DNA from: a virus
Direction: 5' to 3' (one strand)
IMG/VR virus record: IMGVR_UViG_3300042520_003271
Location: 22,913-86,912 of that record
DNA: 64,000 nt
Position 1 is the first letter of the stretch. Each line of letters begins with the position of its first letter. Under the pieces are notes generated by a model. That model was not told where the DNA came from. It saw only the letters and a program-made list of their open reading frames with translations, and did not search any database. Shown in pieces: positions 4,393 through 63,429 of the stretch. A program made the position numbers and the translations under genes.

Positions 4393-7300
4393 CTATAAGA
4401 CCGTTATACCTGTAGCATCTGTAGCCTGTGTGTCAAGTGCTATTTTTCCTATCACGTATCTCGTCATACCATTGGGCGTACCATTATTATCTCTTAGTAT
4501 CTCGATGTAACTTAGTTCGAACGCGCTGACTGTTTGCGTTGCAGTAGTATAGGTGATTGGCCCCATGATAGTATAAATCGCATCATTATTTCTGCCATTG
4601 AATGCTAAGCTACTACCGGCCCAACACATCCTTATCGTGCTTATACCTTGGCGCCCGACACCAGGGTCAGGTAATGGTATTACCCCTAACGAAATCGGTA
4701 TAATGTCTGCAAAAGGCCCAGCTGAATTATCGGTCTTAATATAATAAACGTACAATATGTTGCTAGGTAGCGGAGGGTAGCCAACCCAAGCACCACCGAT
4801 GGCAAACATTTGGCCGCTCGGACTAACTGTAATGTTATCGAAAGGCAAGTTAGCAAAATCAGCACCAATTTTTGTGATGCCGCCGCCAGCTGGTTTGGTC
4901 ATAAAATAAAAAGGAAGCGTTCTTATCGTAGGATAATCAACAACGGCTCTATATGAATTCTGGCCGACCATGCAATAGGGGCCAACCATATTATAATCGC
5001 TTGACGTATCGCCTAGCGATGTCCATGCGCCCGTTGTCGTATTAATAGTACCTACTTGTCGCTTAATATTATTAATGTCTGGGAATGAAATAGCATACAG
5101 AGTACCATTATAAGCTGATATCTGTCCGAATCTATTATAAGGCAGATTAACGTTAGATATGCTTAAAGTGGCTGCCGTTTGTTCATTTATTCTTCTCAAT
5201 TGTGATTGACCTGACACAAAAGTAGTGCCGATCACTAAATTCGTTCCAACTGGTAATCTTGGATATACTAATGGTGTAGGTGTTACTGGTGTTGGCGTTG
5301 GTGGGCAATATATTCTATCATATACTAAAATATCGCCTGTTGCTCCGGCGCCGCTGAGCACATAGAGCGTTGTATTAGCAGAGTTAATACTGATCTCATT
5401 TCCGTATACCACACTTAATAGTGTTTGCCCAGTCCAAGCAATGTTACCAGTAGATGGATATATGATGTATTCATAGAGCCTATTAAATTGAAAATCAGCA
5501 ATATACAAAGAATTATCGACTGTTGCGAGTATACCATTGGTGCGCGTCCCAGCAAGCCCGACGGACGTGCTTGGTGTCGACGCATAATTAATATCACCGC
5601 TAGAGGTATCTCTTGTAAAGGCCGATATTAAGCTATTACCTATGCCAGAAACGAAGATATATTTTTCAGAACAGGCAAATGTAGCTTGGCGAGGGTTTAA
5701 ACTTGCAACATTTAACTCTCGAATTAAAGTCAGAGCTCCATTGCTAGCAGTCCTGCTGAATGCTTTAATCTTAGCAGCGGTAGCTGATACATGATATAAA
5801 AATTTTCCATCGCTAGAACCGAGCATGTAACAGACTTCTCCGACAATAGGAGTCGATAAAATAACGCTTGTCTTATCTGGTATACCGGTGCTTCCTGAAA
5901 TCTTCACAATCCTTATAGCATTAGCCATAGATACGTAAAGATATGCATCGTCTGGTGAAACGTATATTCTCGCACCATTAAAAGCGTTGTTAAATCTAGT
6001 GTCTGTATCAAGCAATAATAGTAAAGCTGTACTGCCAGAATCTCTTTTGAATGTGATTAAACCGCTCTGTGTTATTATATAAATGAAGTTTTGAGAAGAA
6101 GTCATTGCTATATCATGAGGGTTTAAGGCAGCTAGGTATGAAGCATCGAAGCTTAATGAACCATCTGAATTTATAACAAACACAGATATAGAGTTAGATC
6201 CAATGTCAGCTGTGCACAGGATCTTGGTACCATATTTTTCTGATATAATCATAGCTATATGGCTACCGCCAGCAGAAGCTGTTTGTCTTAGCGTTAATTT
6301 ACCACATTGGACGATAGGTGTCGGCGTTGGCGTTGGCGTTGGCGTTGGCGTTGGCGTCGGTGTTGGAACTGGCACGCAGGTAATTTTGGCATACCTTATA
6401 TCGCTTGTATCAGTAATAAGGTAATTGCCGTTGACATTATCCCAGCTGGCCGGATCACCTTTAAATGACGGTATATTAATTGTGATGGTGTCACCGGCTG
6501 TAAACTTTTTCAAGCTTACGACAGGGAGGTTACTGTCTAACGTTGGCTGGCCGTTATTTAAAAAAGCGATGGAAAAAACACCAGAGCCAAGGTTATTTAA
6601 AGTTATCGAATATAGCGTTGTGCCGCTTGCAGCATAGCCATTGAATCCAGCACCATTGCTTGAAAGAATAGTATCACCAGTATATAGCGGAATTGTTATT
6701 TTTCCGATCGTAGAACTCCAACCAGAAAAGCAATCTGATCTGCGTGACGCTACGCTACAAAATATGTAAGGGTCATTGAACCCAAATGCCTCGACCGCCC
6801 CCGCGATATTTGGTATTTTAGTAAAATTATAAACGCTTTTATTCATATAATCAGCTAGGCCAGGAGGAAGAAACCCAGAAGCATATGCTGTCCCATCATT
6901 TTTTATAACTATGCTAAAGTCATCGCCAGCATGGACGGTTTTCCAATCTCTGTCAGTGCTTAATTGTATAAATTTATTAGAATCTAACCTTGAGTTGTTT
7001 CCGAGCTGGCCACTATTATTTCGGCCAGTACCGACCAAAAGACCGCCAGGAAGGATAGCTAAGGTATGGTTTCTGCCAGCTGATACTACTAAAGAATTAT
7101 CAAGAGCCTTTATATAAAAATTACTTACTGGTGTAATAGTGTTGCCTGTACCGCACTGACCGGAACTGTTGTCGCCGTATGCCGTCCAAGTCGTACCCCC
7201 AGCAATTGGATCCTTAGTCACTTTGAAGTAAGAGTCGTAGCCACTATATGCATATTTTGGGATCTCATCGATCGTATAAAGCGTTGAAGCCTCTTCCTCC

Positions 7301-9381
7301 ATGGTCATACTAGTCGGCGCGGTTCCTGGTCTGACGTCGATATTATAAATCGCTTGATAAACCGCACGATCAGAAGTGAAAGCCCTGAGTATTGGATACG
7401 GTTCAGTCGAGTTAGTACCTTGAAATTTAGTACATCTTACATCTATAAAGTTAGTAGGCGACGGATTTACTTCAATCAATCCTAGGCTGGTTTGTTTTTT
7501 AAAACTTGTAATCCTTTTTAGACCTGTGCCTTTTGAAGTATAAATATCACCTACCCATAGTGTACCATCAGTTTTAACGGCAGCTATAATACCATGGCCT
7601 GTCGCGACTTTTTTCCAAGCATATGTGTCAAATGGCTGTTTATATTTCGTAACCTTTTTGACATCATCGAGAGTAGCTCGGAATAAAGGAGCTAAGCCAG
7701 CACATTCAGGATTAGCGCCAGTAGTATAAATATTATTACCACTAAGATCTATCATACATGTAACGCCAGAGAGAAACGGGCCACCATAGAATGGATAGCC
7801 ATCACCTGATGACCAATATTCGACATCAGATGCTTGCTCGACATAACCGCCACGATATGCTCTAATTAAATAGCGTTTAGGATCAGTTAGCGTCGGTGTA
7901 GGCGTATTTGGCGAGCAGTTCTGCCTAGAAAACATCGTGATCGAATCTTTATATTCATTAGGCACATAAATATTTAAGCCATCATAGCTTATACATAGAT
8001 TAAAACCGCCTCTGGTGGCGATTAAACCGACAGCTGATAACGAGCCAGTGGTTATGTTGCGCTTGAAAATGCTTATGCTATTGCTTATACTTATCACATA
8101 GGCGCTAGTCCCATCGGCGCTAATTACGATACCGCAAGGCTCATTAGATGCTATAGTATCTCTTTTTGTTAGAAGGCCAGTTGTGGTGCTGCGATCATAG
8201 CATATTATAGTATTGTTATCGATCGCAGCGGCGGTGCCGCGGAAAGTGACGTAAACGTTTTTACCATTTGGGCTTATGGCGATGCCATTTCCTATACCAG
8301 TTGAAATGGTACTAGCTAGAGTGAGTAAACCAGATGAAATATTGCGTCCAAATATCGACAGCGTGCGCGATGAGCCACCGACGCTAAGAACATATGCATT
8401 CTTGTCGTCGGGACTTATGGCTATATAATATGGTTCGTTCCCTGCTGCTATAGCGCCAATTGATGCTAATAAGCCAGTAGCATTGTCTCTACTATACATA
8501 TAAACAGTATCATCTACTTGGTTTGTAACATAGACATTTTTACCGTCTGTAGATGAACTTATAGCTGTCGGCTGCAGCCCAGTCACTACTGTTCCTAGTG
8601 ATGTCAATGATCCAGTTGCCGTATCGCGCCTAAACATTTGAACTATGCATGAAGTATCACTTATTGTGCTGGCAATATATATGTTTCTACTGTCAGAGGT
8701 AATGCAAATAGCAGACGGATATCCTGTAACGATAATAGTGTCCAATACAGCCAATAAGCCGGTACCTGGTTTACGCTCATAAATTGTGATGATACCAGTG
8801 TTCGTGACATATATGAACTTATCGTCAGGGCTAATGCAAATACCGTGCGGAAAAGCACCGGTCAATATAAAACCTAAATCTGTAAGTTCATCGCATTGAA
8901 CCGGCGGAGGTGTTGCTGGCGGCGGGCAAGTCGGTAATTGTGTCGGGACACCGTATATTTCTAAGTCATCAGAGTCCATTTCCATCAGCGTTACTGTGCC
9001 GCCGGCTGTAGTATTCTGTACTTCACTGATTCTTGTAACAAATCCAAGTGAATTTGCTGTGATGATTGGGATTGTGGTTGATGAACCGTACTGTCCGACT
9101 ACAGCTTTATTTTCGATAAGATCTATCTTGATCGTGCCGGTTCTTGTTATTGGTCCGCCGCTTAATACGAGTGTGTTCGTGTCAAAGTTAAAACCATTTA
9201 CACTTCCAGCGCCAATGTTTATTTTACTGATGTAAGTGGCTCTGTTGTAGCCATTATTGCCGCCAGCGTAGAAGAGAAAAGCGTCATCTTCAAAGAAAAA
9301 GATAGTTCCAGAATAAAACTTATTTGGAGCTAGATTTGTCGGTACTGGGCCTTGCAGCCTTAATATAGTTCCAATATCCAT
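4393..9381 (-). CDS. Large virion fibre/adhesin with lactonase-type beta-propellers, RCC1 repeats and PT linkers
   Basis: 1662 aa; P.GI.ISPDGKNVYVT repeats, GDNSSGQCGTG and GRNNSGQLGN RCC1 motifs, PTPT linkers; N-terminus shared with ORF 79-1719. Confidence 0.75.
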   Translation of the reverse strand: MDIGTILRLQGPVPTNLAPNKFYSGTIFFFEDDAFLFYAGGNNGYNRATYISKINIGAGSVNGFNFDTNTLVLSGGPITRTGTIKIDLIENKAVVGQYGSSTTIPIITANSLGFVTRISEVQNTTAGGTVTLMEMDSDDLEIYGVPTQLPTCPPPATPPPVQCDELTDLGFILTGAFPHGICISPDDKFIYVTNTGIITIYERKPGTGLLAVLDTIIVTGYPSAICITSDSRNIYIASTISDTSCIVQMFRRDTATGSLTSLGTVVTGLQPTAISSSTDGKNVYVTNQVDDTVYMYSRDNATGLLASIGAIAAGNEPYYIAISPDDKNAYVLSVGGSSRTLSIFGRNISSGLLTLASTISTGIGNGIAISPNGKNVYVTFRGTAAAIDNNTIICYDRSTTTGLLTKRDTIASNEPCGIVISADGTSAYVISISNSISIFKRNITTGSLSAVGLIATRGGFNLCISYDGLNIYVPNEYKDSITMFSRQNCSPNTPTPTLTDPKRYLIRAYRGGYVEQASDVEYWSSGDGYPFYGGPFLSGVTCMIDLSGNNIYTTGANPECAGLAPLFRATLDDVKKVTKYKQPFDTYAWKKVATGHGIIAAVKTDGTLWVGDIYTSKGTGLKRITSFKKQTSLGLIEVNPSPTNFIDVRCTKFQGTNSTEPYPILRAFTSDRAVYQAIYNIDVRPGTAPTSMTMEEEASTLYTIDEIPKYAYSGYDSYFKVTKDPIAGGTTWTAYGDNSSGQCGTGNTITPVSNFYIKALDNSLVVSAGRNHTLAILPGGLLVGTGRNNSGQLGNNSRLDSNKFIQLSTDRDWKTVHAGDDFSIVIKNDGTAYASGFLPPGLADYMNKSVYNFTKIPNIAGAVEAFGFNDPYIFCSVASRRSDCFSGWSSTIGKITIPLYTGDTILSSNGAGFNGYAASGTTLYSITLNNLGSGVFSIAFLNNGQPTLDSNLPVVSLKKFTAGDTITINIPSFKGDPASWDNVNGNYLITDTSDIRYAKITCVPVPTPTPTPTPTPTPTPTPIVQCGKLTLRQTASAGGSHIAMIISEKYGTKILCTADIGSNSISVFVINSDGSLSFDASYLAALNPHDIAMTSSQNFIYIITQSGLITFKRDSGSTALLLLLDTDTRFNNAFNGARIYVSPDDAYLYVSMANAIRIVKISGSTGIPDKTSVILSTPIVGEVCYMLGSSDGKFLYHVSATAAKIKAFSRTASNGALTLIRELNVASLNPRQATFACSEKYIFVSGIGNSLISAFTRDTSSGDINYASTPSTSVGLAGTRTNGILATVDNSLYIADFQFNRLYEYIIYPSTGNIAWTGQTLLSVVYGNEISINSANTTLYVLSGAGATGDILVYDRIYCPPTPTPVTPTPLVYPRLPVGTNLVIGTTFVSGQSQLRRINEQTAATLSISNVNLPYNRFGQISAYNGTLYAISFPDINNIKRQVGTINTTTGAWTSLGDTSSDYNMVGPYCMVGQNSYRAVVDYPTIRTLPFYFMTKPAGGGITKIGADFANLPFDNITVSPSGQMFAIGGAWVGYPPLPSNILYVYYIKTDNSAGPFADIIPISLGVIPLPDPGVGRQGISTIRMCWAGSSLAFNGRNNDAIYTIMGPITYTTATQTVSAFELSYIEILRDNNGTPNGMTRYVIGKIALDTQATDATGITVL
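6317..6370. repeat. Hexamer microsatellite (GGCGTT)n encoding a Pro-Thr linker
   Basis: Tandem GGCGTT units seen directly. Confidence 0.9.
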
Positions 9382-12297: not shown

Positions 12298-13284
<987 letters not shown>

Positions 13285-13285
13285 T

Positions 13286-13855: not shown

Positions 13856-13857
13856 TA

Positions 13858-15779: not shown

Positions 15780-15852
15780 GGTTACTCCTGTTCCTATTGT
15801 CAATGTTACTTACCATCGACTTGGGGACAATTATTAGTAACTCCAGTTTTAA

Positions 15853-16497: not shown

Positions 16498-16498
16498 G

Positions 16499-37375: not shown

Positions 37376-37431
37376 AATTTCCTCATAATATATAGAAGAT
37401 CTTAACTACGCATTCTACTAGTAAAATTATT

Positions 37432-37869: not shown

Positions 37870-38294
37870 ATCTGGTTCCCATTTACATCTTTTATTTTAA
37901 TTTCTTCAGAAAGACCGCAGAAGTTAAATAGCGTCATCGCTTTAGCGACCTCAACTACAGCTTTGTCATATTTATCTTCTAGCTTAGTAACACCTACTGA
38001 CTTAACATCTATCGTATGAGAATTAAGAGCATTTCTGGTATTAAGCATTGCTGATCCTAGTACTTTAGCTGAATCGGCGGCCTCTTTTTCTAGACGATCG
38101 ATGGTCTCGACAATACTTGAAATGATATTGTTTATAATGTTTATTAGCAAATCGAAAGATTCTTTTTCTATTCTGACTTTATCGTCATCTACAAGAATAT
38201 CGATGAATTTTAGTGAAAAGCAACATAATGTTTCTGTTGGTTTTTGCATGACTTTTAAATGTGTTTTTAAAGCGTGCAATAAATACTTCTGCAA
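37863..38294 (-). CDS. Hypothetical helical protein
   Basis: 143 aa, TTG start after AAAGGAG. Confidence 0.55.
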   Translation of the reverse strand: MQKYLLHALKTHLKVMQKPTETLCCFSLKFIDILVDDDKVRIEKESFDLLINIINNIISSIVETIDRLEKEAADSAKVLGSAMLNTRNALNSHTIDVKSVGVTKLEDKYDKAVVEVAKAMTLFNFCGLSEEIKIKDVNGNQIC

Positions 38295-38295
38295 A

Positions 38296-39709: not shown

Positions 39710-40420
39710 CTATGAAGATAATACAGTTTCTAATCCATTTTTCTTACCTTTTGGGGCTTTGATTTTCTCGAAAGATTGGATAATGTTAGGGTATCTAATG
39801 TTAGAAGTGTAGACTTCCTGTGTATTAAGAAACATGCTGGCAGAATTTATAAGGTCGTCGGGCGTTGCCATCTTTATGTCTACATGTTGCTCTTTTAACC
39901 GACCAAGAAAGCTATCAATAACTCTAGTCTCAGTAGGGTTCAATATAGCGATCCGGTCTCTAAGTCTTCTCAGAAAAAGCTCTAGACCTAATTCACCATT
40001 TTTTTGGCGGTGTGCTTCAAAATTATCTCTAAGATTAGGTAAAACTACTCTGTCGATTGTTTCTAAATTAAGTAATTCAACGTCATAGATTTTTAATAAT
40101 CCGCCAATCAGATCATTTTTAAATAGATGAGTGACAAATTCTGATAAAAGAATGGCAAGGTCCTTTATTACTATCGATTCACGTCCTTGCAGGAAAAAAT
40201 TAACAAAAAGCTTTAGATTTAAAATACCATGAGCCCATAAGGTGTTTTTAAATAACCAATCATCGATATTCTGGATCGCAAGCCTAGCTCCTGATTGATC
40301 ATGTACTGTAAAATTATCCATGTCAATGATATATATAGTCTCTTTTATTAGAATAGCTACTAAACTACCATCGACATGGATTATATTCATTATTCGAACA
40401 TCTCTGCTGCTGTCAAGCAC
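39710..40420 (-). CDS. Hypothetical protein
   Basis: 236-aa ORF; start possibly MNIIH. Confidence 0.55.
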   Translation of the reverse strand: MLDSSRDVRIMNIIHVDGSLVAILIKETIYIIDMDNFTVHDQSGARLAIQNIDDWLFKNTLWAHGILNLKLFVNFFLQGRESIVIKDLAILLSEFVTHLFKNDLIGGLLKIYDVELLNLETIDRVVLPNLRDNFEAHRQKNGELGLELFLRRLRDRIAILNPTETRVIDSFLGRLKEQHVDIKMATPDDLINSASMFLNTQEVYTSNIRYPNIIQSFEKIKAPKGKKNGLETVLSS

Positions 40421-48500: not shown

Positions 48501-50331
48501 TTGCACCGGAGCTAGGTACAGGTATAGCAATGGAGTCATATCTATTCAGATTTTTTATATAGCACTTCGTAGCGCTCTGGTTTGGAGAGTAAACCTTTTG
48601 AATATAATTCCAGATTTTATTAGAATCTCTTTTGTAGATGTAAACCGCACCACTCTGTTCTCCAGCGCTGTTAAGCGCTATTGGCGCGCCGACCAATAAA
48701 GTCATTCCATCGCCGCTTACAGCAATTGTTTTACCATAATTTTCATCAGCATAGTTAACCTTAAATTCTCCATTGTCAGCTGGGAATGACTTAAGCGTGC
48801 TTGGTATTGGCGTTGGCGTTGGCGTTGGCGTTGGCGTTGGCGTTGGCGTTGGCGTTGGCGTTGGTGTTGGTGTAGGTGTAGGTGTAGGTGTAGGTGTAGG
48901 TGTAGGTGTAGGTGTAGGTGTAGGTGTAGGTGTTGGAGTAGCGGTTGGTGTTGGAGTAGCGGTTGGTGTTGGAGTAGCGGTTGGTGTTGGAGTATTAGTT
49001 TGCACTATAGTAAATCCAGCCTGATAATAAGGCGTACCGTTTACCGTTATGATGGCTTGGCTTGCTCTAGGATCAGTATAATCTATAATGAATGTGTCTG
49101 GGACAGCGACAGTAGTCGTATGAGAACTCTTATATGATTCGATTTTTAGCTCTTGTGCCACCCTGTCGATTCTGTTAGCATATCCGGTTATATTATTACC
49201 AGCAAAAGCAATGCCTATTATTTTTTCCACTCCACCGATCACAGCTAACACCGGAGATCCAGAATCACCACCGGCTATAGGCCAATAGGATGCATCAGCA
49301 TTTTTAAAGACAATATTATCGCTCCAGGTGTTTGTTGATGTTCCATCAAGGTTTCCGACTGTAATTGTAGCGCCAATGCCCGTTATTATTAACTTGCAAG
49401 CAGCAGTTTGGGTAAATCCTTTAGGTCCTGTTGTACGGCCTGTGCTATAAATCGTCGTAGTATTGGCATTCGCTAAAAGGTCATTAATCTCACTCGATGT
49501 GGCAAATTGTGGTATCGGTTTAGCCGTATAATTATCGCTGCCGATTGGACGCCAAGTGTTATAAGATGAAGCAACATCGATATAAGAATTATTTGGAATA
49601 TAGATAGCACCGTCTACATAATTTATACCAGAAGTAACTGGAACATACCTTTTTAACCTACCTACTAAATTAAGACCATTAGATCCATTTAAGGCAGTAA
49701 CACTAGGCGGGTACTTTTTCCCGTCCACGACCCAAGGTAAATTTTCATATATATTATAAGGATCCTGAGTTTCTAGTGCTATGTCCCTGTCTGTAGCTAT
49801 ATTTCTTCTGTCAATTGCAACGTGGCTGTTTGTAAGGCCTACGACTCTAAAATCTATACTATCGAGACAGAACATACCCAAGGTCCCAACACCGAATGAA
49901 TAACCTGTCTGGCCGTTACTAGTCACGGCTGTCCAACCAGTAGGGAATTGGATTAATTCCTGCCCGCCTTTCATTGGTAAAAGAAGTGGAGTGTCATGTC
50001 CTTGTAGCCGTAATATATTGGGATCGGTGCCTACATATGAAGTCAGAGGTGTAGAACTCATGTTAGGATAACAAGGCATTAACTTTATAGGCAGAGCCTC
50101 AACGACATCAGTAATAATATCGACGCCATCTACTGTAATCGTAGAAGGTAAAACATCTGATGGTTTAAGTTCATTTTTATTCTTCTTCTTTAGCACATTA
50201 AAAACAACACCTATTTGGCCGGTATTATTTCCGCCTTTATGCTTATGCCCAAGACTAACACCATGAACGTCATCAGGTGTTATGTCATAGAGTTCTTCTA
50301 ATTTTATTCTTATACTATCAGTAAGCCTCAT
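45520..50331 (-). CDS. Trypsin-like serine protease fused through a PT linker to an FG-GAP propeller
   Basis: Triad TNSHV / VDGAI / GGDSGSPV; long PT linker; [25 protein letters not shown] and FGYSVSI..IAVGAP repeats. Confidence 0.85.
48809..48992. repeat. Compound hexamer/18-mer microsatellite encoding a PT linker of about 60 aa
   Basis: (GGCGTT)n, then (GGTGTA)n, then three GGTGTTGGAGTAGCGGTT units. Confidence 0.95.
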
Positions 50332-50343: not shown

Positions 50344-53300
50344 TTATTTCCACGCTGTGTAAAGTACTTTTAATTTTGATGTCGTTGGCGTTGGTGTCGG
50401 TGTCGGTGTCGGCGTTGGCGTTGGTGTCGGTGTCGGCGTTGGTGTCGGCGTTGGTGTCGGCGTTGGTGTCGGCGTTGGTGTCGGCGTTGGTCCAGAACCG
50501 CAATTAGGGTCAAATGTGACAGTATATGTAGCAGTCGATCCTGTCGGTAATGGCATTATCGATGCGCCGCCGGTCGATATTATACTCCTAAGATAAGGAA
50601 AAACAGCAGGAACAGTTACCAACCCAGGAGATGCACTAACTAAACAATTGCCATCTAGGCATTTTATTCTCATCCTCTTAATGGTTTTAGACCCACTAAT
50701 TATCTTTTCAATATTAGTGATTAAATACTTACCATTATATGGGTCTGTAATGCTATCTAGTTTCACCTCTATCGTGTCACCGATATAAAATTGAATACCG
50801 TTAGCATCGGTTATAGTATCGATCTTAGCGACATTATCGAATATAGTCATACATAAACCAGGGCCAACCGGTATTTGCGGTTTAACGAAGTCCTTCGCCA
50901 GTACGTATCCATTTCTTTCTGGCGACCCATGAGCTAATACAAAGGCACCATTTATAGACCCAAATCCGATCTGAACAAAACTAGATGAAAAAGTATCTGA
51001 AGCATTATTATTATCGATAATGCTATAACCATAACCATAAACATTTCCGCTCTTAAATACGACCAGACATCCTGAAGTATTAGGTTGATAATCTATCACA
51101 CCAGATTCTGGTAAATCTAATTTAATTGGTACGTAAGAGTTTCGCGGTAAACCGGTCTGACCAACAAAACCGCCCCAAAATAGCAAATCACCGTCACGAG
51201 TTAAAGCCATGACATTCGTTTTGGAAGTACGTACACCAAACCCAACACCAGCTCCCAAGCCTATACCAGATACTCCAGGTCCAGCACCAGATCCTATGGT
51301 CTGCACTGGAATCGGATTATACATTGGGATTACTTTATTGGTTGTATAGCCCTCTTTCTGGTTGATGCCTAGTACACCACATTTGTTCTCACCAATAACA
51401 TGCAGGCCGCCGGAAGCATCCACGATTATCAGCGCGGAATCACAAGCATATATCTGCTTGTATGATGGGTCGCTAGCTATTAGTGTGGGCTTATATAAAT
51501 AAGCGATTCCATTAGCATCTGTTCTTTCATAAGTAGTATCAGAAGTCCACTTTAGACTTACGCCAAGGTATGACTCCATGCTGTTCTTACCAACGTAGTA
51601 TATCTCACCTAGATTGGTTAGAAACGCTGTAAATCCGTTGCCTGGGGCTATTTGGTTATAGCTAACTTTTGATAGTTTAGGTAAGAATTCTGCCGTGACT
51701 CTGGTTGGCTCAGCGATAGTTTGGCCTTTTTTGTCGTGGCATGCCTCGCTGAATGTGTCTATACCCCAGGTATAAAGATCACTATTTCCATCGATAGCGT
51801 AAGCCATGCTACCGAATGTGTTAACATATCTCCACATGCCAGGCGCAGCAACCAATGGGTTAACTTTACCATCGATTCTTAACATTTGGGTAGAGTTATT
51901 CGGTCTTCCTGCCCAATAGCCTGAGCCATAAAGATACCCATCAAAATTCGGCATGCCGCTGCTAGGTGGATTAATTAGCAGCATTCCGCTTGAACCAGAT
52001 ACCAAATGATTTATACCAAAACTGGAAAAAGTATCACCATACCAAATATTACATTTTGCGGGTGGCGTTGGAGTTGGAGTAGTAATGACAGGATTACACA
52101 CAATAGTGTGCACGCCATCTTTAATATCAGAAATATAATAAAAAGTATTGATCCAATTTGATGGCGGATTCGAGTCTACACCGCCCGGGAAAGCGAATAC
52201 TATTTTATCGCCAATAGCAAATGGAGTGCTAGTAACTATAGTTCCATTAGAAGCATTTTCCCTCCAGAATTCTCTATAGTTATCTTGTCTTGGATTATAA
52301 TATAGATTAAGCGTCCTTATGATATACACGCTGGCTGAAGCGGTTATAGATGCTCCAGAGTTAACACTTGTTATTAGATCGCTATCGAAAGATTGATTGC
52401 GTATACCAACATATCCCCATTTGCTAAAGTCGCAAGTGACAGTAGATGTTGGAGTTGGGGTCGATGCACCGCAGAGTAGATTTATAAAATAAACTGGGTC
52501 TCCAGTTGTTTGGGTAGTTTTTAACTCAGCGCCGCTAGAAGATACTAAGGTGCGCCCAGCTAATAAAGGAACGTGTAAACTACCTTCACCCCAGCCAGTA
52601 AAGCACCCAAATGATAAACATTCAACATCCATCGTATTATTAGAAATACCAATAACTTTGAATGTACCATTTGGGTTAGGCCAAGACGCATCTATAGCTG
52701 GTATCCCAGAAAGCGTTAAAATATCTCCAACAGCAAACGACTTACCATTGCTTCCAACCAATGTAAGATCTTTACTATTATATATTGTTATAGATATTCT
52801 GTTTATAGTAGAGGTACAATTAGAGGATGGTGTAGGTGTCGGCGTCGGGGTTGGCGTTGGTGTTGGTGTTGGTGTGGTGACAGGCGGATTACACACGATG
52901 GTGTGAACGCCGTTCAGGATTTTAGTAATATAATATTCTTTATTTTCATAGCCTTGTGGTGGGGTTGATAATTGGGCGAAGGTTATTACATCCCCGACAG
53001 AGAAAGGAGTAGCTAGTATTGGCTGGATCGAATTCGCCGGCATCTGCCAAAATTCCCTATAATCATATTGGATAGGATTATAGTAATTAACCAAAGTTAA
53101 TTTGATAATAGTACCATTATTAAACGTATTGATAGTCGCGCCAGTTTTAACGCAATTGATTATTTGATTACCAGTATTAAAAAATGCTATAGGCCATGAC
53201 AAAAAACAATTAGTGGCAGTAGGGGTAGGGGTAGGAGTCGGCGTAGGCGTAGGCGTAGGCGTAGGCGCTGGAGGTGTGCCGGCGAGCACAGCTGCGGCCA

Positions 53301-56300
53301 AACCGGTTCTGGGGGTGCCGACGCTAGCCGTATCTGTCGCCACAACACCAGCGCTTGTGACCTGATTAGTCATACTAACGCAATTGTTGTTATTAAGGAG
53401 GCCAAAGCCGAATAGCGCTTTGCCTCCGCCATACCCACTAGCTGCTAAGCCAGATCTAGCAGTCCCTATACCGGCCGTGTCAGTGGCAACAACACCAGTA
53501 TTAGATACAACATTGGTAACATTAAGGAAAGCTGAAACGTCGGTTACACCAAAGCCAAATATTGCCTTGTCTACACCATATCCAGCAGCAGCTAAATTAA
53601 ATCTTGCAGTTCCAGCACCAGCCGTGTCCGTCGCCACAACACCAGTATTTGAGACTAAATTAGATATGTTAAACGCTGGATCGAAGCCGACAACATTGCT
53701 AATACCATAGCCAAAAATCGCTTTGTCGACCCCATATGCAGCAGCTGCCAAGAAGCCTCTGCCTGTTCCTACGCCAGTTTTGTCTGTTGTTACTACGCCC
53801 GCATTAGAAATGAGATTGGTAATACTTTGACTTGGATGCCCATCGCCAAAACCGACTATTGCTTTGTCGCCACCATATCCTGCAGCTGCTAAACCAACCC
53901 TAGCAGTGCCTAGGCTTAACATGTCGGCAGACACAACACCAACGTTAGAGACAAGATTTTTGGTGTTTACAATTGTTCCACTTCCACCGATAGAGTAAGT
54001 GCCAAAGCAAAATATGGCTTTATCTCCACCGTACCCAGCGGCTGCTAGACCAGATCTAGCCGTACCAACACCTACAGTATCAGTAGCAACTACACCAGTA
54101 TCAGTGACCTGATTTGTAGCACTAAAATAGGCATTTTTAATCACGCCATACCCAAAAATAGCTCTGGCATAGCCACTTGGTATAGGTGACGGAATTGGTG
54201 TTGGAGTAGGCGTTGGTGTTGGAGTTGGTGCTATATTCGGAGTGGGTGTTGGGGTAGGCGTCCAAGTAGCATCGATTCCAGCTGCAGCAAGTGACCACCT
54301 TGATGTGCCGACACCAGCAGTATCAGCAGCAACAACACCAGTGTTAGAAACAAGGTTTGTTAAACTTACAGTAACATTAGCAGAAGTCACCCCAAAACCA
54401 AATGTCGCTTTTCCACCCCCATATCCAGCAGCTGCTAAGCCTAATCTTGGTGTGCCGACACCTGCGGTGTCGGTCGCAACCACACCAGTGTTAGAGATAA
54501 GATTAGTTTTATTAACTAAGATAGTCGGTAAGCTAGCCCCGTAGCCAAATATGGCCTTATCCCCACCGTATGATGCAGCAGCCAGACCTGTCTTGCCTGT
54601 GCCTGCGCCGGCAGTGTCGGTCGCTACTACGCCTACATTAGAAACTAGATTTGTCAATGTTACAACTAGTTGTATGTCCGATCCTGGGGCGGTATCTAAA
54701 CTACCAAAACCGAATATAGCTTTATCGCCACCGTACCCAGCGGCCGCCAACCCAGCCCTTCCTGTGCCTACACCTAAAGTATCGGTCGAAACAACGCCGA
54801 CATTTGAAACAAGATTCGAAACATTAATATATGGTAACAAAGCAGTTATAGATCCAAAACCAAATATGGCTTTGTCTATACCATATCCGGCCGCTGCTAA
54901 TGATCTGGCTGTACCAACACCAGCTGTGTCGGTAGCGACAACACCAGTGCTAGAAACGAGATTGGATATATTATAACTTATTCCTGATCCAGATGATCGG
55001 CCATATCCAAATATTGCTTTACTGCCCCCATATCCGGCAGCTGCTAAGCCTAATCTAGGTGTGCCGACACCAGCAGTATCAGCAGCAACAACACCAGTGT
55101 TAGAAACAAGGTTTGTTAAACTTACAGTAACATTAGCAGAAGTCACCCCAAAACCAAATATCGCACGGTTAGGGCTGCTGGTAGGTGTGGGTGTAGAACC
55201 ACCGGAACTTAAACCACAAGTATTACAAGTGATCAATTGAGCTATACCATTTATAGTAAATGGATCACTTGCGCCAGCGGGAAGCGGGGCGGTCCTAGAT
55301 ACAACCGCATCTAGCGTTAAACTATTAATGAAATAAATAGTACGGTTTATAAAAGTAGTAGCGTATAACTGACTGTTATAACAAAATAAACCAGAGAAAA
55401 CATTGCCTGTATTCAATTTAGGCAATTGTTTAATATTCCATAATGTGCCGCCTAAAGTATATTCAGCGATCCAAGAGTCTAAGTTATTATTGATTACTAA
55501 TGTGGTAAATCTGTTAGTATTCTGATTATATAATATTTCGCCAAAGTTATCAGTCTTCCATGCGCCCGAATAACTTAAATCGAACAATTTGGTGACTATA
55601 GCCTGATTAGTTGAGATATCGATTTGAAATAAAGATTTTGATCCTAATAATAATGTGTTATCAGATTTATAACAAAATCCTTCCAAAAACCATGCGCCAT
55701 TAGCGACAGAAAAATCTAGACCTGGGTATGAGGTAGGTGTGCCTAATATAAAAATCCGGGCGGGTGTCTTAGAAATAGAAAAAGGGGTTAAACCTATATT
55801 ATATTCATCAATCCGATAATACATCGGCGAAGCATTTAGCTGGACGCTTAAAGTCCAGAATTTAAAATTAGACATGGTACTGTCTATTACTGTCCATCCG
55901 CTAATAGTCAGATCAGCAATATTCGTCGTGGTGTTAAAACCATAGTCATAATTCGACAGGGCTCCTCGCCCATTTGCTGAAAAAATGATTTGGCAAGCTA
56001 TATTAACTGGTGTTGGTGTTGGTGTTGGTGTTGGTGTTGGAATCGGTGTTGGAATCGGTGTTGGGATCGGTGTTGGGATCGGTGTTGGAATCGGGCTTGC
56101 AACAGGTGGAGGAGTCGTGCAACCGATAGAAACGGGCCTCCAAACCACCGTGCCATTCTCTTCAAAAGCGATATACTCGCAACTACCATTACAACCTGGC
56201 GAACAAGGACCAGAAAAGCTAGTACCGGGTTGAATGTTCTGATCATTTACCGGCACACCATCTAATGGACAAATTAAACAATTGACCGGAGACCCTGGCG

Positions 56301-59300
56301 TTGCGATCGGAGTGTTTAAAAATTCGATTCCACCGAAAGCAACAGGGTTAGCAATCTGAACCAAGTCTGGATCGCTTACAAATAATTCTTTCGATCCTGT
56401 ACCCAGCTGATATTCTATACCATTATAACCCCATGCTAATAATTTAGCGCAAATCGTTTTTGTAGTATAAGTCGGAGTAGGCGTTGGAGTCGGAGTCGGT
56501 GTGGGTGTTGGCGTTATAAAAGGACAAGCCAAAGAGACTTCAACGCCTTCCCATAATGGATTAAGTAAAGTCCCCTTTTTAGCTGTAATAGCCGTAACCA
56601 CGTAGTCAGCAGTATTCGACACACCACCTACTATAGTGATAGTCTCGTTTTGTAGAAAATTTCGGCCGTTTGATAGACCGCCATAAAAAGAATTCTTTTT
56701 CGTTAGAAAAACACTAAAGTCAGTGATAACTGGCGCGCAAGCGGCTATATGTAAAACATTACCATTTGCATCTACTTGAGTGCCTTTATAATATAAATCA
56801 ATGCTTCCAGTATTCGTGCTGTCAGGGATGCCAATAGTAACGGGTCCTGAACTCTGTTTAACGTTTTTTACTCTTATCAATTCATTTATAGTAAACGCAT
56901 AACTATTATTCAGCGCCACGCCGTTATTAAAATAAAAAGTTGAATCGTCTGGACAAATAACATATATCGGCGTGCCGCTTGCGCTAGAGACTATAACACC
57001 AGAGGATGCGCCTTTAATTTCACCACCGACGTCGACAGTAAACTTCGTACTAGTACCACGTGGTGGAGGTGGTGCAGTGGTGTTTCCTGAGATGTACCAG
57101 CCAATAGAACACGGTGTGGTAGTGCTTGCACTAGTCACAACAGCACCAGAAGTTTTACCAGTTGCTACTACATTGACGTAAGGCGTATCGCTACCACTAG
57201 GCCAATTTTGAAAACACGTTAAATCGGGATTAACATAAGGCGGTGGTGAAGCATCGCAAAGAGACACAGCAATATTGGCGAGATTTCCGCGTTCGGCCGT
57301 TGATGAAAAAGCCATAAATCGGTTATTTCCAAAAGCCACATCAGCATTGCTTATTATTAGCTGATTGCCGGCGTTGCGAATATACCAATTATAACCATCC
57401 GCAGAAACAGCTTCTATAGTATCTGTAGAAGTAATAAGGAATATGCTAGCCCCATATACAATCCGCTTCCATTGAACTGGGGGCGTCGCTCTAGGAGTAG
57501 GTAGTAAAACCTTTGTCCATTTTTTAGCATCCAAAGACACCGCTACATAATTAGCATCAAGAGCACTAGGTATCGCTATAAATACGCCACTACCATAGGT
57601 AATGTCTACCCAAGGGTTTATCTTGACTGGTAGATTGAAAGTGTTCCAATTAACGCCATCAGAAGATACCATCGCATAGCCGGCGTTAACTAAAGTTCCA
57701 TTTGCTAATTCTTGTGAAGCTAATGCCACAAAAACGCCATTTGCGAAAATCAACTCTGACCATATAGCAAAATTCGGTAGTGTCATCTGCGACCATGTCG
57801 CGCCATCGTCTACAGAGTATGCACCGATATTAGAAAAGCTTAAGGCTACATATTTCCCAGCTCCATAGCATATTTGGATCCAATTTTTATTAGCAGAGCT
57901 TGGGAGCGATGGTAAGGTAGAGAATATCTGCCAAGTCTTACCACCATCTATAGACCTAGCTATCTCTTTTTCTTCCGACAATAAAAGGTATGTCTTATCA
58001 GGACCAACAGCGATATCTTTCCATACAGTTGTTCCAGCAGTGGCACCACCATAGACATTAAAAGGTGACCAAGCAATGCCATCATCAGTTATCTGGAGGG
58101 CAGAAGTGGTAGTATTGAGCAATATAAAGTTAGAGCCATATGTAAAGAGCATATCGGCATAAGGAGACATTCCACTAATAGCACTCACAAAATCCGGAGC
58201 TTTACTAGCAGTCCAAGTTGTAAGACAAGTAATCGCTGAGCAATTTGATATGGAGGCCTTTGCACCCGTTACGTCACCACTAAAAATGGCCAAAAAGGTG
58301 TTGTTGCCTCTAAAGAAATTTAAAAAACTGATGCCGGGCGTCACGCTATTATAAGTCAATGTGGATATCAACCAATTAACACCATCAGTAGAGTGGATGA
58401 TGTCAGAATCAGTCACACGAGCTGGTACTTTTTTAGCCGCGACAAAAGCCGACCCTAAATATGAAGCTGAAGCAGTCGAAGCGCTTTTAATTATGCTTAG
58501 GGCTGTGACGTTACTTGGTAGAATTATGTCTTGCCATTTTGCCGGAGATCCGGTTTTAACAGCCGCGCCATTGTCTAAAGTAATTGCGACGATTATGCCG
58601 CTGTTACCCTCAATGCCGATCCATTTATCAGATCGTGAGAATTTCTCAACAATCCAGGTTACGCCATCTATCGATGTTAAATATGAGTCATAGGCAGAGC
58701 CATCAGAATTTTTGCCAATTAGATAAAATTTATCACTATAGCTAACAGTAGACCAAACATTGTTTTGTATTACCGGCAGATTAATCAGTGTGAATATAAG
58801 CATGGTCGCATCAACGGGATGAGTGCTATGCTTATACACTTTGCCATCCGAATGGATAGCAACTATTATAATCGAAGCTGGATTCCAACTAATTGATACG
58901 ATATTTAAATTTATACCAACTTGTGTAGAATCAAACGGCTTAGTCCAAGTAACGCCATCGTCGGTAGACTGGCGCACGACGCCAGACGTGCTATAAATAG
59001 CAACCGTCGGCAGTGTCCTATCAGCGAAAAATGCGATTTTATTCCAGTATCCTGTTGTTAACGCGGGTAATGTAAATGAAGTCCACGTTTTACCCGATGT
59101 GCTCTTATAGCCAACATCAGTAGTAGTTGTATTTCCATAAATATCATTATGTGAAATAGCATAATAATATAGGCCGTAAGTAGCAGTATCAACAATCACC
59201 CTATCTGACGGAATATCAGATCGTTCCCATATATATCCACAAATATTAGTGGCGGGCGTTGGAGTAGGTGTTGGTGTTGGTGTTGGTGTTGGTGTTGGGG

Positions 59301-62300
59301 TCGGTGTTGGTGTTGGTGTTGGTGTAACAGGAGTGCATGATAGAATCGCGGCTTCTCCTGGATATCTAATCCCGAGACTTGCAGCTTCGACTATCTGAGT
59401 GATATAATATGTTCCACTAACATTCCCAAAGCCACCGACACCCTGCCACATATTAGGCAAAGTAATAGAATTTCCAGCTTTTAAACCTTTTACTCTATTA
59501 ATATAATTCGGAAAATCAATTTTATCGTTAAAAGTGATGCTATATATATCCCTAGTGGTAGAATACGATAAAGTAGTTATTTCTGGGTTAGTAAACCCAG
59601 AAAGATTAGAAGTGATGACTCCAGAAAAATAGCCAGATTGACTCTGTTTATTCCAAGAATCAAAACATGGGCCATTTGGAGTTCCTAAACATTCAAACAC
59701 AAAATTAGAACCATAATTTAGCGGGGCACCCAAGGTGCCTTGAGTAACGGTGATTGGACTTATGATAAATTTTGAAACTAATTTATCAGATGTGGTGTAA
59801 CCAAAAGCTATGTTTGCGATACCAGGTATAGCATTAGGTGAAGAGGGTCTTGCAAAAATAGAACCAGTCAATTCCCAATTTAAGCCATCTCTGGAGGTAA
59901 TCGCATAATAGTTAGGTTTATTTCCACTAGCATCTGACGGAAGTAAAACAAAGGATCCGGATCCAAAGGCACCAAAGGAACAACGACTAGAAGTAAAATC
60001 GGTTGGTAATGAAGCTTTGGACCAAGTATTAGAATATAGATTAGGGTTAGAATAAACGCCACCTTCGGCTAATAAAACAAACCTACCAGCGCCATAAAGA
60101 ATGTCGTAGCATCGTCCAGCGGAGGCAGGCAAATTAAAAGGTATAAAAGCATTTGGGCCACCATCTGATGTATAGCCCTTGGTCGATATCGGAAGACTAC
60201 CGCTAAGATCAGGACTAGATGGTAATAAGATAAATAAATTATTAGTATAGGCCAAATTCCAAGCAGCGCCTTCTAACGATAGTCTAAAAGCAGCAGAATC
60301 AAATGTAGATCCGTCATTAGAGAAATAAAATCTAGACACGCTAGGCGAAGCGCCAGGAGATGAAGTCGATAATAAAAACTTATCCTTGCCAAATACGATG
60401 CTTAAAAGATATTCGTCAGTTGCTTTTCCAATAAATGTATAAGAATTTACTGTAGCACCAAAATCATCGGTATAAATAACCACTTGTTCTGTGAAAGCGC
60501 TACCTTTTGTTGCTATTAATACGATCCTTGTATTGCTGGCGGCGATTTTTGAACTAAGATAATAGTTTATATAGTCACCAAAATAAAACCCAGTAATCGC
60601 ATTATCTGTCCAGTTAACACCATCGACAGAAGTCTGCAAATATGTTGGAACTACTATTGAAGCAGATTCGGTTTGGGTAGCGGTGGTCAGCAGATTTATA
60701 AATCGCCCTTGACCATATTTTATTCCGTAAGAACTTCCGCTTGTAACTTTTGACGGCACAGCAGACCAAGTATTCACTCTGCAAGGATATAAAATAGGCG
60801 TAGGTGTCGGTGTCGGTGTCGGTGTGGGTGTGGGGTTTCCACCAACACTAGCCGCGGCTAGACCGTACCTCTCAGAGCCGATACCGGCTGTGTCTGTGGC
60901 TACAATACCGGTGTTATTGACAAGATTAGATATACTTATACCGGTAGTAGAGGTAGCCCTACCATATCCAAATATAGCTCTATCGCCACCATAACCGGCT
61001 GACGCTGATAGCATTCTTGGCGTTCCGATTCCGGTTACATCAGAAGAAACAACGCCGATATTGCTGACAAGATTAGTTAAAGAGACGTATTGGCCGGCGT
61101 TAAAACCATAGCCAAAGATAGCTTTATCATTACCATATCCGGCTGCTGCTGCGCCAGTCTTACTACTGCCAACACCGACCGTGTCTGTTGCGACGACACC
61201 GATATTGCTAACAAGATTTGTTATCGAATAAAGGTTATTATTGTCTTGTCCAAAGCCAAATATTGCTTTATCACCACCAAAGCCAGCTGCGGCTAAATAG
61301 TTTCTAATTTTTCCAATACCGGCGGTGTCAGAAGCAACAACACCAGTATTTTGTACAAGGTTTGTTGTGGCGACATATGCTGTAGAAAAACCATAGCCGA
61401 ATATAGCTTTATCTAATCCATATCCTGCTGCAGCTAAACCTATCCTCGCTGTTCCTACTCCAGACGTGTCGGACGCCACTATTCCCAAATTACTAACTAG
61501 ATTAGTAGTGGAGACCTTTACATCTACACTATAAGTAACCCCATATCCGAATATTGCTTTATCGCCGCCATATCCTGCTGCGGCCAAATAAAATCTTGCA
61601 GTTCCAACGCCAGTAGTGTCAGTTGCGACTACACCTGTATTAGAAACTAGGTTTGTAACGCTCGATGTAGCCAAGCTGTCACCGAGACCAAATCCAAATA
61701 TAGCTCGGCCGGTTGTGCTGGGCGTCGGTGTTGGAGTGGGTGTTGGTGTGGGCGTTGGAGTAGGAGTAGGCGTTGGAGTAGGCGTTGGAGTAGGCGTTGG
61801 AGTAGGCGTTGGAGTAGGTGAAGCTGTAGGCGTAGCAGTAGGCGTAGCCGGAGAAGGCGTTCCAGTACCACCACCAATATCAGTACAAGCACCCATCTGC
61901 ACATTAGGACAATAAAAGAAAGGTTCTTGACAACAATTATCGACTTCAGGAGACGCAGGAATTAGAATCTGCCAAGGAAACTGAGCGTTTTTTGGGCCGT
62001 CAGCACCATACCACGTTACACCACCAGTCTCGCAAGGTTCCTTGTTAGTTAAAGGTACCCAATCGAACGCATTCTTCTCATAATTATGCTTAGTAACACA
62101 ATTAGGCAAAGGCTGCCAAACAAAAAAATTAGTCTTAGGCGTTTCAGAGCCGATAATATTGGTTTCATGTACCCTTAGAGACTTATATCTATTGGCAGTA
62201 GTTTCGACACTCGCTAAAACGCTTTTAATCGGGCTTTCAAAAGCCAAATTTGTTGATCCTGGCACCAAAGAGATATTATCGACATTAGTTTCTAAACTTA

Positions 62301-63429
62301 TATCGCCAAACGATGATAATAAAGTCGAAGAACTCTTATCATATCTTAAGCCGATGAGAGGTTTTTTTGCTAAAACCGAACCGCCAGCTTCAATAGCGAT
62401 TTCACTAACACTTAGTTTAGAAGATCCAATATCACCCCTAGCTCCATCTGGGCCGCATTGTCTTGACTTTACAGCATAATTAGTATTCCAAGCACCGACT
62501 TTAAGAACAATTTTTCCGTAAGCGATATGATATTCTTTATTATAACCTATGAGGGCGGCAGATGCAGCTTCATCGATCAAAGCAGAAAGTTCGCCAGAAA
62601 AACGAACCGGAACTTCGCCGGTCGGATCGATTTTTATTTCTAACACACTCTGAGCATTTATAGAATCTAAGTCAAGATTTTTAATGACATCATTTAAACA
62701 GAAGTAAAATTGGTCATTACCAGCAGCGCATTTATTTCTAATATCGGCTTGAAGCCGCATATACTCTTCGTATTCATTATTAATAGTCAAGAAATATATC
62801 GGCAATTCGACATAAGATGGAAGAAGAGATGGAGCAAAAGAAGGATCGAGTTCATCTAACCTTACACTAATATCTGGTACATGACCGTTGGGAAGATATA
62901 TTTTCCCGCCGGCTGCAAGCGGCTGAGGAGTATAGACAGCAAACGACATGGTATTATTGTCAAATGTCGGATTGAATGATAATTCAGCGGGCGCAGCTAA
63001 GCCGTCTACCCCAGCAGCACCGATTAATCCGCGCTGGCCGGTAGGGCCTTTACACCTTTCATTATACAACAGACGATAAAGCCGCTGCATATTAATTTCT
63101 ATGCGCAATTGGCTTTTAGATTCAGCCTTGAATTTTATTAATCGGTTATTAGATCTAAAATAATAATAGTATGCACCTTTACCAGGCAATATCTTTAAAG
63201 GCGCTTGATTTAGGGCCTCTTTAAAATTTTTATAATATTGTATTCGTTTATAGATCTCTGGAGAAACAAAGCCATCATTCTTTTCATCGACAATTATAGG
63301 CGGCTGAAGATAGCCAATTGAGACCCAAGTATCAGTAGAAGAATAATATCTCCAAACATTTCCATACTTATCTGCGACTTCTTGACCATCTTTAGCGTTT
63401 CTAGGGAAACGAGGTGTAAATTTTGCCAT
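50344..63429 (-). CDS. Giant (4361 aa) modular virion fibre/adhesin
   Basis: Short collagen-like GXY runs, three blocks of AIFG(F/Y)G..TNLVSN.GVVATDT.GVGT.R..LAAAGYG.DK repeats, S.DG..W (BNR-like) propellers, an RCC1-like region and more than 10 PT linkers. Confidence 0.85.
50384..50490. repeat. GGTGTC/GGCGTT microsatellite encoding the terminal PT linker
   Basis: Tandem hexamers seen directly. Confidence 0.9.
54304..55159. repeat. Exact 100-bp direct repeat pair (54304-54403 and 55060-55159)
   Basis: TGTGCCGACACCAGCAGTATC...CCCAAAACCAAAT is identical in both copies. Confidence 0.9.
56009..56093. repeat. PT/PIPT linker microsatellite
   Basis: (GGTGTT)n followed by GG(A/G)ATCGGTGTT units. 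Confidence 0.9.
59254..59327. repeat. PT linker microsatellite
   Basis: (GGTGTT)n. Confidence 0.9.
61720..61862. repeat. PT linker microsatellite
   Basis: (GGCGTTGGAGTA)n and variants. Confidence 0.9.

Follow-up and report, generated by a model that had tools for sequence, protein, structure and literature searches.

Introduction

In modular secreted bacterial enzymes and fibrillar adhesins, Pro/Thr-box linkers separate independently folding modules, the number and order of which vary from one relative to the next. We describe here a 4,361-amino-acid (aa) protein with modules strung on linkers of this type, encoded at 50344..63429 (minus strand) of a 64,000-nucleotide window of viral DNA (the whole stretch that was analysed, bases 22913-86912 of the 86.9-kilobase (kb) linear IMG/VR record IMGVR_UViG_3300042520_003271, CheckV completeness 24%). 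Unlike the secreted proteins it is phage-encoded, has no signal peptide by eye and carries systematic cysteine brackets, on chains that run to 3,575-4,418 aa in the protein and its orthologues. The gene product is best explained as a giant structural protein, of fibre or adhesin type, that belongs to an uncultured jumbo phage. Most of its non-repeat modules open and close with a cysteine, and we favour, with moderate confidence, a reading in which the two cysteines of each bracket would be joined by a disulfide within the module, closing it from its N- to its C-terminal end.

Disulfides that join the two ends of a domain are known from other multidomain proteins. In the hemopexin domain of the matrix metalloproteinases, a disulfide between the two terminal blades tethers the four-bladed propeller (PMC3045013), and in von Willebrand factor (VWF) domains A1 and A3 have an N-to-C disulfide, to which their stability and mechanical resistance, higher than in A2 without such a bond, have been linked (PMC3479114). 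The phage protein resembles both in placing a cysteine near each end of an autonomous domain and in carrying such domains on a multidomain chain. The VWF and hemopexin domains, however, fold in the oxidising secretory pathway with the help of catalysts, and their disulfides are experimentally shown, whereas the phage protein is made in the bacterial cytoplasm, has no sequence relationship to either, and carries a bond that we infer.

Phage structural proteins made in the cytoplasm can also be disulfide-bonded, as described for the sheath and baseplate of Agrobacterium phage Milano, the tail-tube rings of a siphovirus and the Qbeta capsid (PMC10811340 and PMC13576161); those bonds are inter-subunit lattice cross-links, whereas here we propose intramodule closures repeated along one chain. 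Such closure would combine two known kinds, the disulfide-stabilised phage virion protein and the N-to-C stapled mosaic module, the 4,361-aa protein being by sequence a member of neither. With phage tail fibres, including its Mtd_N-bearing neighbours, it shares a position in a fibre-gene block, a conserved N-terminus and a mosaic distal part, but it has no recognised tail-fibre domain, and its layout is that of beads on a string rather than of a continuous trimeric shaft. We found no description of cysteine-bracketed modules in phage fibres in the full-text literature (most subscription journals lie outside this coverage), and a study of aquatic large phages (PMC12619734) contained, by term search, no mention of disulfides or RCC1.

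Cysteines bracket the modules of the 4,361-aa protein

The association of cysteines with linkers was confirmed against a null in which the 58 cysteines of the protein were dealt at random over non-linker positions. A cysteine lies no more than 8 residues away at 13 of the 20 linker flanks, as against 2.12 expected; the maximum over the shuffles was 9, and none of 20,000 reached 13. Five of the seven bare flanks adjoin the repeat modules R1, R2 and R3, the other two being the end of module A (nearest cysteine 22 residues off) and the C-terminal tail, and counted over the flanks that belong to non-repeat modules the bracket is present at 13 of 14. The parts of the gene, together with a second bracketed protein of the window, are as follows.

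50344..63429, minus strand: whole gene, open for 4,361 codons; 58 cysteines (1.33%) and 10 (xP)n/(TP)n linkers
61822..63429, minus strand: module A, aa 1-536; conserved N-terminal domain, 10 cysteines, two short Gly-X-Y runs
61720..61821, minus strand: linker 1, aa 537-570, (TP)n
60832..61719, minus strand: R1, aa 571-866; cysteine-free, about six ~50-aa "AIFGFG" repeats
60796..60831, minus strand: linker 2, aa 867-878
59689..60783, minus strand: B1, C883...C1247; Asp-box propeller-like, 4 cysteines, bracketed
59335..59667, minus strand: B2, C1255...C1365; small, its sole 2 cysteines at its two ends, weakly F-like
59254..59325, minus strand: linker 3, aa 1369-1392
58240..59241, minus strand: C1, C1397...C1730; Asp-box propeller-like, its sole 2 cysteines being first and last residues
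57256..58227, minus strand: C2, C1735...C2058; Asp-box propeller-like, bracketed, plus C1854
56524..57216, minus strand: C3, C2072...C2302; composite of small modules, 5 cysteines
56473..56514, minus strand: linker 4, aa 2306-2319
56119..56451, minus strand: D, C2327...C2437; 111 aa, 7 cysteines including C-x2-C and C-x3-C-x3-C
56008..56097, minus strand: linker 5, aa 2445-2474, (IPTP)n/(TP)n
55216..55995, minus strand: E, C2479...C2735/C2738; 260-aa module, 5 cysteines
54262..55194, minus strand: R2, aa 2746-3056; cysteine-free AIFGFG repeat module
54178..54261, minus strand: linker 6, aa 3057-3084
53269..54177, minus strand: R3, aa 3085-3387; AIFGFG repeat module, 2 non-bracket cysteines
53221..53268, minus strand: linker 7, aa 3388-3403
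52891..53208, minus strand: F, C3408...C3513; small beta-barrel, starts "CFxxW", ends "HTIVC"
52828..52875, minus strand: linker 8, aa 3519-3534
52471..52818, minus strand: G1G2, C3538, C3604-x4-C3609, C3653; composite barrel, its four cysteines termed a, b, c and d
52096..52434, minus strand: G3, C3666...C3778; F paralogue (45% identity) with only the 2 bracket cysteines
52063..52080, minus strand: linker 9, aa 3784-3789
50854..52053, minus strand: H1, aa 3793-4192; RCC1-like propeller, N-terminal cysteine (CNIW) and 4 internal
50500..50853, minus strand: H2H3, C4193, C4257-x4-C4262, C4310; second G1G2-type composite with the same four-cysteine pattern
50386..50487, minus strand: linker 10, aa 4315-4348
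50347..50385, minus strand: C-terminal tail, 13 aa, after the last linker
4393..9381, minus strand: 1,662-aa fibre-like protein following the same cysteine rule; permuted G2→G1 barrel C884...C1002, linker, C1026

A preliminary description had reported that modules tend to open with C-x2-4-W and to close with a cysteine immediately before the next linker, and both halves of the observation were reproduced. CRVNTW (883), CFDSW (1255), CGYIW (1397), CLTTW (1735), CFQNW (2072), CFLSW (3408), CDFSKW (3666) and CNIW (3793) each occur once, as do the closing forms ILSC-TPVTP (1362), SLAC-PFITP (2299), TIVC-NPP (3510), LLC-GASTP (3651) and DPNC-GSGPT (4307); in total the protein holds 10 occurrences of C-x2-4-W against 2.4 expected, with a maximum of 9 over 5,000 shuffles. 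The 1,662-aa protein shows the pattern as described, at KITC-VPVPT (C1002), IVQC (C1026) and RIYC-PPTP (C1359). The same Cys-spacer-Cys arrangement is found where modules abut without a Pro/Thr (PT) linker (C1247/C1255, C1730/C1735, C2058/C2072, C3604/C3609, C3653/C3666 and C4257/C4262), and B2, C1 and G3 contain exactly two cysteines, one per end.

The pattern extends beyond this one chain. Relatives of the source virus comprise records of 274.6 kb (CheckV 70% complete), 97 kb (27%) and 75 kb, and two orthologues of the protein have bracketed flanks at 10 of 20 (reached by 1 of 20,000 shuffles) and 11 of 22 (reached by none of 20,000). Over the fibre-type proteins of the whole contig 21 of 51 flanks are bracketed (4.1 expected), over those of the 274.6-kb relative, 114 kb of which was covered, 26 of 61 (5.2 expected), and the unrelated database proteins P0004 and P0005 retain brackets. 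Within the same phage, brackets are lacking from the AIFGFG repeats, from most RCC1-like propellers of a 3,929-aa protein and from a 651-aa protein with no cysteine at all. The 1,603-aa neighbour (45520-50331, minus strand) is likewise unbracketed: an N-terminal protease-like part (phrog_20754, also present in a 448-aa contig protein) is followed by a 46-residue PT linker and FG-GAP repeats, and the nearest cysteines lie 153 and 80 residues from that linker.

Paired loss and circular permutation of cysteines in the small barrels

The arrangement most informative about pairing is that of the composite barrel G1G2. In the G1→G2 order its four cysteines follow the scheme a...b-x4-c...d. The outer cysteines a and d are never split: six instances have the two of them, and three (P0011, the 1,662-aa protein and the orthologue of the latter) have neither. 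The inner cysteines b and c occur in all nine, P0011 having b and c only. The G2→G1 order of the halves is found in the 1,662-aa protein and in its orthologue; there c comes first and b last, these alone are left of the four cysteines, and a direct strand-turn-strand join occupies the place where a and d would sit. The motifs "hxhxC" (around b) and "CFxxW" (around c) are neighbours in the first order and lie at the chain ends in the second, so the termini of the c...b forms must meet if the fold is shared. On the simplest reading, a would pair with d and b with c across the inner C-x4-C, so that the outermost pair closes the composite in either order. The stapled unit of G1-G2 is then most likely the composite barrel and not each half, and to this extent the earlier proposal that every domain is individually closed would need correcting. 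Paired loss is seen in module E as well, where C2683 is replaced by V and C2738 by A together in one orthologue (G002).

Modules F and G3, and B2 with less certainty, resemble the c...b forms of this barrel. The C-terminal half of F aligns with G1 up to the terminal cysteine (hhalign 85%, E 6e-6, 45 columns), and B2 aligns weakly with F (hhalign 59%, 89 columns). A joint MAFFT alignment of F, G1G2 and G3 was dropped, the G1 rows having fallen on the C-terminal half of F/G3, and separate alignments were used; P0006, the last 12 residues of which look like translated sequencing-adapter read-through, was left out of the retained alignments and of the structure models. When aa 3404-3783 were compared with 1.84 billion representative proteins, 26 matches at E<=1e-3 came up, a good number of them on linker material only.

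The predicted structure of F has a confidence (predicted local distance difference test, pLDDT) of 86-95 in 10-residue blocks over most of the domain, with block averages of 75 around C3408 and 91 around C3513. F and G1G2 are candidates for small beta-barrels of PilZ-like or translation-factor type. The matches of F are weak and PilZ-like (9fmv_A, Z 6.1, root-mean-square deviation (rmsd) 4.3, 80 aligned; 8u0i_A, Z 6.0, rmsd 4.8, 83 aligned), and the G1G2 model (pLDDT 64-88) matches 1s0u_A as one barrel over model residues 3-119 (Z 5.2, rmsd 3.5, 79 aligned), with the reservation that Z values of less than 8 may be due to nothing more than a common arrangement. Only residues 1-120 of a 780-residue model were usable; G3, H1 and H2H3, for which one relative or none could be aligned, stayed at pLDDT 22-41 apart from a single 10-residue block.

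Bracket cysteines are conserved and orthologues differ by whole modules

Comparison of orthologues supports strong constraint on the bracket cysteines, as judged from their alignments. Across the C1-D region 17 of 17 cysteines are kept at 86% identity and 16 of 17 at 65% identity, where cysteine is the best-conserved residue type and the sole loss concerns a non-bracket residue (C2159, Tyr in one orthologue); C1 keeps both of its cysteines at 65% identity. In the F family both terminal cysteines are kept in 10 of 10 complete domains.

The same comparison shows how the chain is assembled. Module A (92-99%), C1-C3, D, H1-H2H3 (67-97%) and the tail are common to three orthologues, whose middle parts are variable. 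That of G002 (3,575 aa) is without B1, B2, R3, G1G2 and G3 and has two copies of F; that of G001 (4,418 aa; 187408-200661) carries B1 followed by an F-type module in place of B2, and has extra modules unmatched in the 4,361-aa protein. Breakpoints between cassettes fall at linkers, the DNA of which consists of degenerate 6- or 12-nucleotide repeats. That the differences involve entire modules and break off at linkers supports the view of autonomous cassettes carried on flexible strings. Of the stapled cassettes envisaged in the preliminary description, the plug-in character is thus borne out by the swaps at linkers; the N-to-C disulfide is supported indirectly, by paired loss, by permutation and by the position of the bracket cysteines of F in a confidently modelled fold.

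Module A is highly uniform, its N-terminal 523-536 aa being 92-99% identical in 3 IMG/VR relatives with 10 of 10 cysteines kept. It contains Gly-X-Y runs at aa 128-145 and 326-337, each straight after a cysteine, and a cysteine-rich end segment (C499, C500, C507 and C515). By eye, the cysteine followed by Gly-X-Y is retained, together with a "CCQE.F..CPN" motif, in distant homologues (P0030, P0031 and P0033, 28-33% identity). No homologue of module A was found at E<=1e-5 among proteins of 2,398-7,632 aa; shorter proteins gave 5 matches. We presume module A to be the virion-attachment and oligomerisation part. At the other end of the chain, the tail sequence ...KVLYTAWK recurs in the orthologues, and ...DVLYTAWD ends an otherwise unrelated 717-aa contig protein (G000:C1:2798-4951); a short tail shared in this way after the last PT linker may be an assembly or docking tag.

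Candidate oxidases and the formation of disulfides

The preliminary description had regarded terminal disulfides as unexpected in a protein assembled in the cytoplasm, and had proposed a search for Erv-, thioredoxin- and Dsb-type oxidases. Thioredoxin (PF00085), DsbA (PF01323), glutaredoxin (PF00462), Thioredoxin_4 (PF13462), DsbB (PF02600) and VKOR (PF07884) had no match in this contig or in the 274.6-kb and 97-kb relatives, records that are 24%, 70% and 27% complete, which leaves absence from the genomes unproven. Erv1/ALR (PF04777), the oxidase type of the virus-encoded cytoplasmic disulfide pathway in poxviruses and mimiviruses, had no match in the 274.6-kb relative, the sole record searched with it, in a search that matched no control genome either. 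A Pfam scan of the open reading frames (ORFs) of the contig listed no thiol-oxidoreductase families either.

The failure to find a phage enzyme need not weigh heavily. The virion of phage Milano carries disulfide networks (PMC10811340), and according to PMC13576161 oxidase machinery has not been described from phages and well-placed cysteines can bond spontaneously in oxygenated surroundings. With disulfides documented in phage virions, and with thiols accepted to oxidise spontaneously once outside the cell, an end-to-end bond that forms after lysis would need nothing special, and the surprise expressed at the outset was overstated.

A model for end-to-end closure, and its alternatives

We propose the following arrangement. 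Module A, with its short collagen-like runs, probably anchors the protein to the particle, and the remainder would comprise some 16 autonomous modules (Asp-box and RCC1-like propellers, small beta-barrels, repeat modules and the cysteine-containing D and E) on flexible (TP)n linkers. In most non-repeat modules the chain would enter and leave at one spot, with cysteines on the first and last structured residues, and the bracket disulfide would make each module a covalent loop. Such a bond may form by spontaneous oxidation, or through host periplasmic oxidants at lysis, making a phage oxidase unnecessary. Each module would then hang from the thread as a pendant: tension would pass through the S-S bond and bypass the fold, and the ends could not fray. 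By analogy, such a clamp would suit a thread of several thousand residues that has to withstand shear and proteases. Since each module would be self-contained, cassettes could be gained, lost or exchanged by recombination within the repetitive DNA of the linkers and leave adjacent modules undisturbed.

Several observations weigh against this arrangement. The closure is no general requirement, since this phage also has propellers and repeat modules without bracket cysteines. Modules with odd cysteine counts (C2 with 3, C3 with 5, D with 7, E with 5, F with 3, H1 with 5) must contain cysteines that are free or otherwise paired, and H1 has no cysteine at its C-terminal edge to partner the one at its N-terminus. 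For the small barrels, structural similarity to known folds is weak (Z 5-6). The 4,361-aa protein itself has no tail-fibre match in Pfam or PHROGs, its only PHROG being phrog_15511, on a linker. Lastly, the evidence from paired loss comes from few independent events, roughly three, and because so few events of loss and permutation are available, we hold the case for an end-to-end bond to be moderate, not strong.

The bracket cysteines might instead bond between chains, tying together the parallel chains of an oligomeric (e.g. trimeric) fibre, or neighbouring fibres, at the linker boundaries, much as cystine knots flank collagen helices, an option that the preliminary description had also allowed. 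The cysteine that precedes each Gly-X-Y run of module A hints at an oligomer with such knots, and the documented phage networks (Milano and the siphovirus tail tube) are inter-subunit; (TP)n, however, cannot form a collagen helix that would hold chains in register, and the three equivalent cysteines of a trimer cannot all pair. Modules with two cysteines, one per end (B2, C1, G3), fit one internal bond, as the paired loss of a and d and a permuted barrel left with only its two outermost cysteines fit pairing within the module, and we consider inter-chain bonding unlikely. Equally improbable, in our estimation, is that the cysteines stay reduced and are conserved for packing at domain seams, metal binding, redox sensing or modification. 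The protein is made in a reducing cytoplasm, the thiol-oxidoreductase families sought had no match in the incomplete records, several modules have odd numbers of cysteines, and the C-x2-C and C-x3-C-x3-C spacings of module D could bind metal; yet Zn is not chelated by two cysteines alone, and exposed termini beside flexible linkers are unusual sites for conserved free thiols. Cysteine is, moreover, the best-conserved residue type at 65% identity and is lost in pairs, and virions live outside cells, where adjacent thiols oxidise and bonds may form spontaneously (PMC13576161).

Pairing across junctions, in which the last cysteine of one module bonds the first of the next with the PT linker looped out, would account for the C-linker-C arrangement at 6 of 10 linkers (fully at 3, 4, 5, 8 and 9), for C-x4-C at three linker-free junctions, and for P0011, which has only the junction cysteines b and c (a pair that end-to-end closure also assigns to each other). 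It would, however, leave the outermost cysteine of every run partnerless (C883 and C3408 follow repeat modules, and C4310 precedes the cysteine-free tail), looping out linkers of 12-34 residues would defeat their role as spacers, and in the permuted barrel c and b are chain termini with no need of a neighbouring cysteine, all of which makes this arrangement very unlikely. We give hardly any credence to a pattern without function, whether a by-product of composition or of common descent from one cysteine-ended ancestor. F, G3, B2, the G1G2-type barrels and the end of C3 may form one superfamily, and their brackets could then be inherited; but the rule is common to unrelated folds (Asp-box propellers, small barrels, D and E), bracket cysteines survive to 40-65% identity while nearby residues change, and composition is excluded by the shuffles.

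Returning to intramodule closure, a more far-reaching version of it can be formulated, which we regard as tentative and would not expect to hold in full. The modules would share a standardised cassette format: self-closing units that become disulfide-locked only outside the reducing cell (a redox maturation), that hang as force-shielded pendants, and whose linker DNA serves as the recombination joint for shuffling, duplicating and circularly permuting cassettes within and between fibre genes. The system would then be an independent counterpart of the exon-shuffled, stapled mosaic proteins of animals, operating without a secretory pathway.

Intein- or hedgehog-type self-cleavage at the boundary cysteines, and lipidation, were also considered and were rejected, there being no flanking motifs or signal peptide by eye.

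Propellers and AIFGFG repeat modules

Modules B1, C1 and C2 are probably BNR-type propellers. Asp-box-like S-x-D-G-x-x-W motifs are concentrated in them, 11 of the 12 in the protein falling in B1 (2), C1 (3) and C2 (6), where 0.7 would be expected in the whole protein, and the motifs recur at the spacing of propeller blades, the six of C2 lying about 46 aa apart. The region has a Sortilin-Vps10 match of 21.6 bits, below the 33-bit cut-off, and a PDB sequence search with aa 879-2062 gave only a linker-level match, to internalin K (E 0.007). H1 matches an RCC1-like family (PF25390, E 9.3e-19, 68.4 bits, below the 150-bit cut-off), with a model pLDDT of ~25.

The AIFGFG module, of six ~50-aa repeats, is present in three copies in the 4,361-aa protein and also in three other proteins of the contig, as follows.

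L001 2933-3826, 5694-6599 and 8829-9716: AIFGFG module copies elsewhere on the contig, 42-62% identity to R3

The module has no Pfam match; its relatives in BFVD come from uncultured Caudovirales, with up to 58% identity. The R3 model is all-beta and propeller-like at low confidence (pLDDT ~40-60), and its match to 3kci_A has Z 11.0 but rmsd 16.

Genome context

The source virus would be an uncultured jumbo phage with a genome of ~350-400 kb, as extrapolated from CheckV completeness. Among 50,697 phage records no close DNA relatives of 50344-54343 were found. Phage replication genes (split DnaE, DnaB, RecA/UvsX, gp32-like and UvsY-like) occupy the middle of the window, and fibre-type genes lie at both ends of the contig, which encodes four proteins with the Mtd_N (PF18454) tail-fibre N-terminus and has many tail-fibre PHROG matches. 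The fibre-type giants of the contig (3,929, 1,662, 1,603, 885 and 4,361 aa) carry RCC1-like, lactonase-like, FG-GAP and other propellers. The 4,361-aa gene sits inside a fibre-gene block, next to genes with Mtd_N and tail-fibre PHROGs; these neighbours, and the contrast between a conserved N-terminus and a mosaic remainder, would place its product in the virion. Atlas look-alikes of the protein are collagen and Phage_tail_C clusters, at scores of 0.82-0.86 (lead level 0.9).

Sugar-modification genes are found at 12325-19410 and 31655-32371, and include GDP-mannose 4,6-dehydratase, at least 3 glycosyltransferases and a CMP-sugar-type cytidylyltransferase; taken with the hundreds of threonines in the linkers, this set raises the idea of a putative O-glycosylation of the (TP)n linkers.

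Further features of the window concern other genes. A 546-aa protein (79-1719, minus strand) with a weak tail-spike PHROG match and the 885-aa protein (1727-4384, minus strand) share a near-identical C-terminal segment, "...SGSASSLP.TPAAY...NGT.YKLPLYN". DnaE (DNA polymerase III alpha) is split in two within 34321-39696 (minus strand), with the PHP domain and the start of the NTPase domain at 38296-39696 and the remainder at 34321-37044; three small ORFs (37031-38294), one of which matches a C2H2/BED-type zinc finger, separate the halves and may be an inserted mobile element. A 511-aa protein (40390-41925, minus strand) matches the Pfam family Volactin (PF25216, E 8.7e-38, 131 bits, cut-off 35) and has no PHROG match; we take the family, and presumably this protein, to be actin-like.

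Implications

Few parts of jumbo-phage genomes are as poorly understood as their giant uncharacterised proteins. If bracket cysteines do close their modules, the succession Cys-module-Cys between Thr-Pro linkers would provide a rule for cutting giant phage proteins into expressible domains, and the small barrels, being almost without relatives, offer new structural targets. Phage disulfide chemistry would extend from lattice cross-links to end-to-end clamps within modules. The protein would, further, offer a natural example in which to study the resistance of very long and thin adhesins to open-water shear and to proteases, and would illustrate the reshuffling of modular repertoires for receptor binding.

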